Shown in pieces: positions 20,172 through 22,281 of a DNA stretch of 30,981 nucleotides. Location: the NCBI RefSeq assembly GCF_003334355.1, contig NZ_QOWP01000038.1. The stretch is one strand, 5' to 3'. Positions within the stretch are counted from its first letter, which is position 1; each line of letters opens with the position of its first letter. The translations under genes were made by a program, and so were the position numbers. The stretch is from Escherichia coli. Its GTDB lineage: Bacteria > Pseudomonadota > Gammaproteobacteria > Enterobacterales > Enterobacteriaceae. The notes below the pieces were generated by a model. The model was not told the origin of the DNA, made no database searches, and worked only from the letters and a program-made list of their open reading frames with translations.

Positions 20172-21074
20172 TTATGAAAGCATAGACCGTTTACCCTCCC
20201 TGGGTACGACGGAACAGGGGTCCTGATGGATAATTACATCCGATCCCGGAAAACGCCGTAAAATAGCCTGCTCTACCTGATCCGCCACCATATGTGCCTG
20301 AACCAAAGGCAGAGAGTCTTCCATTTCCAAATGAATCTGAATAAAGCGGGTCGGCCCTGACTGCCGCGTGCGAAGATCGTGAGCGCCGCTAACACCCGGC
20401 CAGGAAGTCACGATATCAATAATTTCTTGCCGTTCCTCATCAGGCAATGCGCGATCCAGTAATGATTGTACCGCCTCATATCCCATGCGTAACGCGCTAT
20501 ATAAAATATAGATGCCGATTCCCAATGCAAACAGAGCATCGGCGCGATGCCAGCCGTACCAGGACAACCCCAGCGCCAGCAGAATTGCGCCGTTCATCAT
20601 AACATCAGACTGGTAATGTAGCATATCAGCCCGCACCGCCTGGCTTTGCGTCCGCCGCACCACCCAACGCTGAAACGAGACAAGGATAATCGTACAAATT
20701 AGCGCCACAATTGTCACGATAACCCCGACGCCTGGATCTGTCATCGGTGTTGGAGATATCAGATGTTGAATACCCGTCAAAAACAGGAATAGTGCCGAAC
20801 CGGAGATAAACATACTTTGCGCCAGCGCCGCGAGGGACTCAGCTTTACCGTGACCAAACGAGTGATTATCGTCGGCAGGTTGCAGGGAATATCGCACCAC
20901 CAATAAATTCGTCAACGACGCGCCGATATCCACCAGCGAATCCACCAGCGCGGCGAGAATACTCACCGACCCGGTATACCACCATGCAAAAATTTTAATC
21001 AGCAATAGCAGCGAAGCCATCGCCGTCGCAGCAATCGCCGCCCGACTGACCAGCCGTCCATAAGATTGATTCAT
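20172..21074 (-). CDS. fieF: Cation-efflux pump FieF (CDF family Fe/Zn transporter)
   Basis: 300 aa from ATG at 21074 ([50 protein letters not shown]...); six TM segments plus cytoplasmic C-terminal domain. Confidence 0.95.
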
Positions 21075-21092
21075 AAATACTCCCGCTATCAA

Positions 21093-21281
21093 CTGACGCT
21101 AGTATAACGGAAGCAAATCATCTGCAATGCATTAAGCAGCAGGCAAATTGAGGATAAAAAAAACCCCCACATCATGTGGGGGAAGACAGGGATGGTGTCA
21201 CAATAAATCACCTAACCTGATGATATAAATGGATTTATATCAACCGCTGTCCACATAGCGTCCACATCGTTCAGCGTCCGT
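21093..21281. other. Candidate prophage attachment junction (chromosome/P2-like prophage boundary)
   Basis: Non-coding gap between fieF and the first phage-side ORF. Contains hairpin CCCCCACAT-CATGTGGGGG (about 21154-21178) flanked by A8, and two direct repeats at 21248-21256 and 21259-21267 (minus strand ATGTGGACA / ATGTGGACG), spaced 11 bp. Confidence 0.4.
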
Positions 21282-21923
21282 TTAATCGGACGCTTTTAAA
21301 TTTTTATTTTTCCCAGCAGAAAAATTAGCTTTCCCGCTGTTTTGCAACTCAACAAGAGGAGATAACCGTCGGTAAACAGCCAAAAGTATCTTTAACTGAA
21401 CCAGTTCATCTGCCCCCGATAGTTGAACCAAGTTTTTACGTTGTTCTTCACTAAGTGCCATCACAGATTCAAGTGATTTAACTGCGTCAGAAACAAGTTC
21501 AATCTCTTTAATTTGATTCTGTATACGCAGCTTCTCTGATTTCAACTTTGCCCATTCTCTTTGTCGATATGTACGCATCACCTGATCGTAAACTTTGTTG
21601 GCAGCCAGAATACTTCCACCAACAGCAGTAACTAACTCAGCAATCTGCCAAGAGATATCAATAAGAGCAGACAATTCAATAAAGCCAGGAGAGGCATACT
21701 GAATTTTTTTCACTACAGGACGTAAATCTGGTGGAGTCGCACTGTAAGCCCCTCTAAAAAAGTTCACTACACTGTGCCCACCCTCCCAAGGCATTGTTGA
21801 ATATCCTCTTGATCCTCCTTTTAGGCCATAAAAAAAACCATATAGCTGCAAATACTCTTTCGTTAAGACCGCGAAATCAGCTAACTCCCAACGATTATCA
21901 AGCTCAATTATAACTTTTTCCAT
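21282..21923 (-). CDS. Hypothetical protein, prophage cargo (moron) of unknown function
   Basis: 213 aa from ATG at 21923 (MEKVIIELDNRWELADFAVLTKEYLQLYGFFYGLKGGSRGYSTMPWEGG...) with GGTGA-type RBS upstream; an in-frame TTG at 21941 would give 219 aa. Visibly AT-rich. Own AT-rich upstream region (21942-22023). Not CpxP; no motif I recognise; C-terminal half looks coiled-coil. Confidence 0.7.
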   Translation of the reverse strand: MEKVIIELDNRWELADFAVLTKEYLQLYGFFYGLKGGSRGYSTMPWEGGHSVVNFFRGAYSATPPDLRPVVKKIQYASPGFIELSALIDISWQIAELVTAVGGSILAANKVYDQVMRTYRQREWAKLKSEKLRIQNQIKEIELVSDAVKSLESVMALSEEQRKNLVQLSGADELVQLKILLAVYRRLSPLVELQNSGKANFSAGKNKNLKASD

Positions 21924-22023
21924 TTTCACCAACCTGTCCAACTTTAAAAATTGACTTTTAAGTATATGATAAACATGGTTTATTAAACGTGATCCACTAC
22001 TTTTAATGAAGAATATTCCCCAA

Positions 22024-22057
22024 AACAGAAAGCCCCTCGACTGAGGGGCTTTCTGTT
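22024..22057 (-). terminator. Rho-independent terminator downstream of ogr
   Basis: Hairpin AGAAAGCCCCTC-GACT-GAGGGGCTTTCT; on the minus strand followed by a T-tract. Confidence 0.65.
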
Positions 22058-22062
22058 TGTAA

Positions 22063-22281
22063 CTACATCCACATAATTTGCTGCCCTGATGGCAACGGGT
22101 GCGGCCTTACGGCGTGGACTTCTCCCGGCTTCACGATGTATCGCTGTACCGACTCATAAGTGATGAACGTGGCGCTGCAATTCACGTTCTGGCACTGGTG
22201 ATAACGCTCTTTTGTCGTGTCAGTGATATAGCGGCTTGTACGCGCATGTGCGGCATGCTGGCATAAAGGACAATGAAACAT
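22063..22281 (-). CDS. ogr: Late-gene transcriptional activator Ogr (zinc-finger)
   Basis: 72 aa from ATG at 22281: MFHCPLCQHAAHARTSRYITDTTKERYHQCQNVNCSATFITYESVQRYIVKPGEVHAVRPHPLPSGQQIMWM; Cys4 zinc-finger pattern, matches P2 Ogr as recalled. The ORF-track start at 22365 is an extension. Confidence 0.93.
   Translation of the reverse strand: MFHCPLCQHAAHARTSRYITDTTKERYHQCQNVNCSATFITYESVQRYIVKPGEVHAVRPHPLPSGQQIMWM

Follow-up and report, generated by a model that had tools for sequence, protein, structure and literature searches.

The interval between fieF and the phage-side genes of this DNA is, with a probability that we put at roughly 0.95, the attR site (P-O-B′) of a P2-family (Peduovirus) prophage with Wphi specificity, located at the known Wphi attB in the cpxP–fieF spacer. 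The window, by which we mean the whole stretch of DNA that was analysed, is 30,981 bp long and ends at position 30981 inside the prophage, approximately 9.8 kb in; int, attL and the P′ arm would lie beyond its end. A preliminary description of the same DNA had already drawn attention to this interval. Its observation is confirmed, and its interpretation is supported, as every testable element held.

The host side of the junction was defined by alignment to K-12, whose annotation, transferred with an offset of +19399, places fieF on the minus strand at 20172..21074, on the B′ side. The fieF start is the ATG at 21072–21074; the ORF finder stretches the reading frame to a TTG at 21092. Because the annotated start is at 21074 and not at TTG 21092, the non-coding stretch runs from 21075 to 21281. 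The preliminary description had reported a gap of 190 bp after fieF and the absence of cpxP; the absence is real and is explained by the prophage insertion, but the bounds of the gap have to be moved to 21075–21281, with the fieF ATG at 21074. The window is identical to K-12 from fieF to 21199, except at base 21172, and similarity is lost beyond this point. In K-12 the cpxP stop codon is found 24 bp past the place where host homology ends.

A closer comparison is provided by strain PSS-12 (NZ_AP027697.1), in which the cpxP–fieF site is empty, with fieF next to cpxP, and which is 100% identical to the left 20 kb of the window. Up to 21199 the two sequences differ at one position only, a SNP at 21142; from 21200 they diverge. 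The B′ flank upstream of fieF (21075..21152) is therefore shared with K-12 and, apart from that SNP, with PSS-12, and is host spacer rather than phage DNA. Together, PSS-12 and the window form a near-isogenic before/after pair for the integration event. The prediction that a junction lies inside the interval is thus borne out, as K-12 and PSS-12, the latter with its 100% identical flank, match it only up to 21199. An end-to-end alignment with the uninterrupted K-12 fieF–cpxP spacer, which had been named as the result that would place the junction elsewhere, fails, with homology stopping at 21199.

Homology to phage genomes covers 21153–21269, and was found in Wphi (NC_005056), L-413C, fiAA91-ss and about 45 other Peduovirus genomes. 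Since host identity extends to 21199 and phage identity begins at 21153, the two overlap by 47 bp, and this overlap is the common core (O) at 21153..21199, shared by host attB and phage attP: GATAAAAAAAACCCCCACATCATGTGGGGGAAGACAGGGATGGTGTC. The core matches Wphi attP at 47/47 positions (1801–1847 of the retrieved segment), is identical to the PSS-12 attB, and has one mismatch to the K-12 attB. As in a P2-type attR (P-O-B′), host sequence thus gives way abruptly to phage sequence across a block that attB and attP share.

Complete genomes of related lysogens show both ends of such prophages. In NZ_AP021914, which is identical to the window through 22104 in its attR and cargo region, each end of the prophage carries an exact copy of the 47-bp core in direct orientation, the two being 31,059 bp apart. 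The complete-genome collection contains no exact counterpart of the prophage part of the window; EC31 comes nearest, at 99.6% identity over 90%, and its exact core repeats are separated by 29,455 bp. Both lysogens have the order fieF, core, P arm, ogr, cox, C, int, P′ arm, core and cpxP; in NZ_AP021914 the order in full is fieF / core / P arm / cargo, ogr, D ... Q, P ... A ... cox, C, int / P′ arm / core / cpxP. The second junction had been expected beside int, some 30 kb further right, and in the closest complete lysogens it is indeed found 29.5–31.1 kb away, after int and before cpxP. At the same chromosomal site in ECCWS199 (NZ_CP032237.1), no more than about 1.9 kb separates the attR-type junction from the attL-type one, suggesting that what remains in that strain is the remnant of an almost wholly deleted prophage.

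[quoted passage not shown] The core is identical to that of Wphi attP, and the attB is in the cpxP–fieF spacer, as is characteristic of Wphi specificity. The 27-bp P2 core (locI / cyaR) has no match in the window with up to three mismatches, and this is therefore not a site of P2 specificity. The Int proteins of the closest lysogens are 97–99% identical to Wphi Int (317/327; 99%) and 52% identical to P2 Int. The N-terminal 50 or so residues are nearly identical among the lysogens, Wphi and P2, and this region of Int is the arm-binding domain (PMC3448106), so that arm sites are common to the P2 and Wphi types while their cores differ. The earlier proposal of P2-type integration was therefore correct as to the phage family and the type of arm repeat, but P2 specificity has to be replaced by that of Wphi.

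The Int arm-type sites of the P arm are two direct repeats at 21248..21267. Read on the minus strand they are ATGTGGACG (21267..21259) and ATGTGGACA (21256..21248), and on the plus strand TGTCCACAT (21248–21256) and CGTCCACAT (21259–21267), with a start-to-start distance of 11 bp. They were found just as the preliminary description had them, and the resemblance to P2 integrase arm sites that it had suggested is substantiated by the published consensus sequences, tgTGGaCa for the P2 group and tgccGCCActt for the 186 group (Nilsson et al., PMC3448106). Both repeats fit the P2-group consensus, and at least two arm repeats are thereby present on the ogr-proximal (P) arm. The P2 reference record has the order ogr terminator, Int ‘P arm’, IHF, attP core, Cox and Int ‘P′ arm’, and the repeats in the window are the positional equivalents of its Int P arm. 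In the orientation of the window the P2 P arm reads GGTCACGTCCACACATTGACCACATCGA, that is, a GTCCACA/GACCACA pair spaced at 11 bp and then CG. The corresponding sequence of the window, GCTGTCCACATAGCGTCCACATCG, has the same build.

The P-arm repeats are identical in Wphi attP. On the other side of the core, the P′ arm of the Wphi-type element, as seen in Wphi attP and in the attL of lysogens, is GAGTGTCCACATAGTGTCCACAC, in the same orientation as the P-arm repeats; the pattern to be expected beside int in the source prophage is GTGTCCACA-N2-GTGTCCACA. An alignment of six att sequences, which takes in the attP sites of an Evevirus, a Novemvirus and a Stockinghallvirus targeting the same core, showed that the core and both arm units are kept while the spacer has drifted.

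As the repeats are short, we considered whether the two 9-mers might be chance repeats, or sites for Cox or the C repressor, rather than Int arm sites. The 8-mer common to both, GTCCACAT, is present in three copies in the window against 0.7 expected; two of these are the repeat pair itself and the third is at 2405–2412, and three copies were reached in 2 of 100 shuffles. An origin by chance or through another protein is nevertheless barely credible. The repeats agree with the published P2-type arm consensus, and their 11-bp spacing, their orientation and their distance from the palindrome described below are those of the annotated P2 P arm. The P′ arm beside int has another such pair, oriented in the same way, and the repeats are kept in divergent genera while adjacent bases drift. 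Moreover, the Cox region of P2 is annotated on the opposite (P′) side of the core. Conservation across attP sites is stronger evidence for arm repeats than the count of 8-mers.

The spacer between the core and the P arm contains two further elements. A pattern scan identified an IHF-like 13-mer, TATCATCAGGTTA, at 21213..21225 on the minus strand, with one mismatch to WATCAANNNNTTR; the same sequence is present in Wphi. Its strand, and its place relative to the palindrome and the P arm, are those of TTTCAATTTATTG within the annotated IHF region of P2. We regard it as a putative IHF site on the basis of the one-mismatch consensus match and its positional homology to P2. A repeat search found an A+T-rich perfect palindrome with 10-bp arms, TGATATAAAT-GG-ATTTATATCA, at 21221..21242, one arm of which is overlapped by the IHF-like 13-mer. 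The equivalent palindrome of P2, GAAATAAA-AGG-ATTTATTTC (GAAATAAA / TTTATTTC), is inside the annotated IHF region, is likewise overlapped by TTTCAATTTATTG, and is equally far from the P arm. The equivalent dyad of phiT5282H is GAATAAA..TTTATTC, so that the dyad is preserved, at a constant distance from the P arm, while its letters have changed. The palindrome may be part of an IHF/bending module, or a site for another dimeric factor.

The interval also contains a hairpin with arms CCCCCACAT (21164–21172) and ATGTGGGGG (21174–21182), adjacent to an A8 run at 21156–21163. On the minus strand this gives an 8-bp G+C-rich stem and a 3-nt loop followed by T8/U8, which scores as an intrinsic terminator in both the terminator scan and the RNA fold. 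cpxP is transcribed on this strand; the structure is its intrinsic terminator and the 3′ end of the CpxQ sRNA, and occupies 21156..21182 on the minus strand (stem 21182..21164, U8 21163..21156). The preliminary description had recognised the hairpin and the A8 run, but placed them at about 21146–21178, slightly to the left of their real position. Its suggestion that this structure terminates transcription of the displaced neighbour gene is upheld by the terminator scan and by the match to the K-12 cpxP 3′ UTR.

In K-12 the cpxP 3′ UTR is 67 nt long, and the 47-bp core corresponds to its last 44 nt and 3 bp past the U-tract. These 44 nt are the same at attR as in the cpxP 3′ UTR of K-12 and PSS-12 apart from the polymorphic loop base, and attR therefore carries the 3′ body and terminator of CpxQ. 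Upstream of the core, the minus strand at attR has the phage sequence AGGUGAUUUAUUGU and not the native UUUUCCUUGCCAUA, so that the native 5′ 14 nt are missing. The 5′ region of CpxQ is the seed for nhaB and cfa (PMC6755755). Lacking both this 5′ seed and the linkage to cpxP for RNase E processing from cpxP mRNA, with cpxP some 30 kb off, the attR copy is a truncated duplicate of CpxQ and not a second CpxQ gene. As the last 44 nt of the cpxP transcript are also supplied by the phage, the cpxP 3′ UTR at attL is intact and identical to the native one. On the other side, attR keeps all 125 bp that natively precede fieF.

In an Rfam search of the interval for CpxQ, no family scored above threshold. 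A sub-threshold match to Hrs1 (RF02628; 31.4 bits against a gathering score of 56.4) was seen at 21156–21200 on the plus strand, opposite to CpxQ, and the Hrs1 consensus resembles the reverse complement of the CpxQ terminator and the CCCUGUCU segment. This resemblance suggests that the Hrs1 family may be a CpxQ homologue modelled on the opposite strand. In the searched open-access and bioRxiv literature there was no paper joining CpxQ, prophage and attachment site, and we did not find in it the relationship that emerges here, in which the 3′ three-quarters of CpxQ constitute the Wphi core, with the sRNA rebuilt at attL and a truncated copy left at attR.

Natural variation within the core allowed the position of strand exchange to be narrowed. 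The loop base at 21172 is polymorphic in E. coli, with T in the majority of empty sites and G, as in K-12, in a minority; in a spread sample of full-length empty sites, 9 of 33, roughly a quarter, have G. All phage attP sites examined have T at this position, and no phage record exactly matches a G version. Among lysogens, G is present at attR in at least 60, and in all seven of these that were checked at the other end (7/7) attL has T. No exact attL with G was found in 5,426 genomes, 820 of which have an attL junction. The prophages of the checked G-attR lysogens span approximately 30.2, 30.4, 31.4, 36.8 and 38.2 kb, and these differing spans indicate that there were probably several integration events. 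Since attR has host sequence on its left and phage sequence on its right, retention of G at attR together with T at attL puts the loop on the fieF side of the crossover, and strand exchange within 21173..21199.

Phages carrying G and crossing over to the left of the loop were considered as another source of this pattern and rejected, as this would need all lysogenised hosts to have had T and the existence of G phages, which were not found. The difference between the window and K-12 at 21172 was also tried as a means of placing the crossover in this particular prophage, and was dropped when PSS-12, with its identical flank and empty site, proved to have T as well. T is the majority allele of empty sites and is therefore uninformative in the window; the SNP is informative only in hosts with the G allele. 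Across thousands of genomes, however, this natural loop SNP confines exchange to 27 bp, a result that we did not find in the searched literature.

The preliminary description had taken the hairpin as the likely position of the core. The hairpin does lie inside the 47-bp core, but strand exchange maps to 21173–21199, on its cpxP/P-arm side. A rival reading is that the terminator hairpin is itself the recombination core, its arms being the core-type Int sites, with exchange across the loop. The hairpin is the most conspicuous inverted repeat of the 47-bp core, and P2 likewise uses an sRNA terminator region as its core, which we take to be the 3′ end of CyaR. Tyrosine recombinases typically have an overlap of 6–8 bp, and the arms of the hairpin are only 1–3 bp apart. 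In addition, the clean segregation at 21172 (at least 60 G at attR, 7/7 T at attL, no attL with G in the 5,426 genomes and no attP with G) puts the loop outside the exchanged segment, to its left. We therefore consider exchange across the hairpin very improbable, and place it to the right of the loop.

Within the exchange interval, inspection of the sequence revealed AGACA-GGGATGG-TGTC at 21185..21200, in which the short arms of an inverted repeat are separated by a 7-bp spacer and the next base is T in attB and A in attP. This segment forms a small 5-bp stem in the CpxQ fold, and is kept in six attP/attR sequences through 21197. Purely as a hypothesis, it could represent the core-type sites of Int and the overlap region between them, in which case cleavage would take place at its borders with the spacer.

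Integrases of the lambda/P2 type are heterobivalent, binding arm sites with the N-terminal domain and core sites with the central and catalytic domains. By this model, the N-terminal domain of the integrase would bind the arm repeats at 21248–21267 on the P arm and the matching pair on the P′ arm, and its central and catalytic domains would bind core-type sites. Bending of the A+T-rich spacer (approximately 21213–21242) by IHF would allow one integrase to bridge arm and core. Integration would have exchanged strands within the 47-bp block shared by attP and attB (21153–21199), narrowed by the SNP data to 21173–21199. Because the phage also carries the CpxQ terminator region, the 3′-terminal 44 nt of cpxP mRNA, insertion would rebuild an intact cpxP–CpxQ at attL, and would leave fieF with its native 125 bp upstream at attR. 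Excision would be expected to require Int, IHF and Cox acting on attL and attR.

The junction could be real and the prophage nevertheless a decayed, non-excisable remnant, with the arm sites and core persisting as relics. The window covers just 9.8 kb or so of the prophage; the junction types at the same site in ECCWS199 are separated by about 1.9 kb only, and in AR_0151 an IS150 is inserted next to the same cargo gene as in the window. We think such decay unlikely here. From the core through the IHF-like site to the arm repeats there are only 3 substitutions in 117 bp relative to Wphi attP, none of which is in the core or the repeats, and the open reading frames of ogr, D, U, T and the remaining tail genes within the window are all intact. 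The closest lysogens carry full-length prophages of 29.5–31 kb with int, C, cox, replication, capsid, tail and lysis genes. The attR described here is thus more probably that of a complete prophage, which may still be active.

The window loses its similarity to Wphi and to cargo-free lysogens after 21269 and regains it at approximately 22021. The DNA between these points, on the minus strand at 21270..22020, is an A+T-rich cargo cassette of 751 bp (GC 33–45%) inserted between the P arm and the ogr terminator. It has a single ORF of 213 aa (WP_000416606.1; 21282–21923, minus strand). The protein gave a PADLOC match to PD-T4-10_B with E = 1.3e-34, and had no Pfam match and no PHROG match. In the two-gene abortive-infection system to which it belongs, PD-T4-10_B is the toxin (PMC9519451); a search for a PD-T4-10_A partner of the cargo ORF yielded no candidate ORF of at least 25 aa. 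The cassette is followed by the rho-independent terminator of ogr and the late operon (22029..22052, minus strand), an exact reverse-complement match to the terminator in the P2 record, and by ogr itself, the 72-aa late-gene activator (22063..22281, minus strand), which was identified by translation and is annotated by RefSeq as ogrK in near-identical lysogens.

Among 808 genomes with a Wphi-type P side, 587 are uninterrupted and approximately 221 break exactly after the P arm. The junction and cassette of the window were matched over at least 80% of their length in 159 genomes. We considered whether the position after the P arm is a hotspot for diverse cargo, and abandoned the idea because the one further interrupted example inspected, AR_0151, has the same cargo gene together with IS150. 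About one in four of these prophages (160–220 of about 810) has one and the same cassette directly behind the P arm, and we did not find this reported in the searched literature.

The terminator scan detected a terminator-like hairpin over the cargo stop codon (21273..21294), with a T-rich tail on the plus strand only, and no terminator on the minus strand of the cassette. As the cargo gene lacks a minus-strand terminator, its transcript may continue across the P arm as far as the CpxQ terminator (21182–21156) and stop there. Such a transcript could in principle be a phage-driven RNA with an Hfq-binding terminator and the internal part of CpxQ, without the 5′ seed, that competes for Hfq or acts on a subset of CpxQ targets. 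We regard this as speculative and doubtful; if it were true, a truncated and differently regulated CpxQ look-alike would be present in the 160–220 E. coli genomes with the cassette, and attR would be more than a scar.

Further into the prophage, the window encodes a small serine recombinase of 197 aa (28724–29317, minus strand), annotated as ‘recombinase family protein’ in EC31. Beside it are tail-fibre-region ORFs in opposite orientations, at 29345–29851 (plus strand) and 29905–30561 (minus strand). The region 28724–30561 looks like a Gin/Cin-type invertible tail-fibre switch, which is absent from P2 itself.

Occupation of the cpxP–fieF site is common. Of 5,426 complete E. coli genomes, 833 are without an intact empty site, which corresponds to approximately 15% occupied, and the attL and attR junctions were found in 820 and 784 of the 5,426, respectively. 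The Wphi attB has been located at MG1655 4104392 (PMC3448106), the P2-like prophage ‘Wphi1’ of E. coli W is at cpxP–fieF, and the cyaR site of P2 is tabulated in the same study (PMC3032704); the Wphi att site has also been used in the pIT5 integration plasmids (PMC12765450). The site described here is an ordinary, already documented type of attR of a Wphi-type P2-family prophage, and leaves the current view of P2-family integration unchanged. Its value for annotation is that the prophage boundary is fixed to the base, by the core at 21153–21199, and that the integration module is identified as Wphi-type.

The closest known counterpart is the attP of Peduovirus Wphi (NC_005056), which has an identical core and the same host site, and matches 21153–21269 at 114 of 117 positions. 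The three substitutions are all in the spacer, with none in the core or the repeats. Wphi differs from the window in having no cargo, whereas the window prophage has its 751-bp cassette between the P arm and the ogr terminator.

The attP of P2 (NC_001895) resembles the interval in the order of its elements relative to ogr and int, in its tgTGGaCa repeats and their 11-bp spacing, and in an A+T palindrome/IHF module equally far from the P arm; the N-terminal domains of the integrases are nearly identical, and the P2 core is also located at an sRNA terminator. It differs in its core, AAAAAATAAGCCCGTGTAAGGGAGATT, which is at cyaR, another host site, and in an Int that is only 52% identical overall. 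Moreover, the distance between core and palindrome is approximately 12 bp longer in the window, and the sRNA terminators are oppositely oriented relative to int.

In the lambda paradigm, a bivalent tyrosine integrase bridges arm-type and core-type sites with the help of bending by IHF, and attR is a hybrid of P arm and core. This heterobivalent Int/IHF paradigm is set out in PMC9791396. The interval shares the P-arm-plus-core hybrid architecture of the lambda attR, but has no sequence relationship with it; P2-type phages use Cox and not Xis, and have only two arm repeats per arm. Finally, the att sites of 186-type phages belong to the same phage family and have the same overall architecture, but their arm consensus, tgccGCCActt, is unlike the motif in the window and their targets are mostly tRNA genes (PMC3448106).
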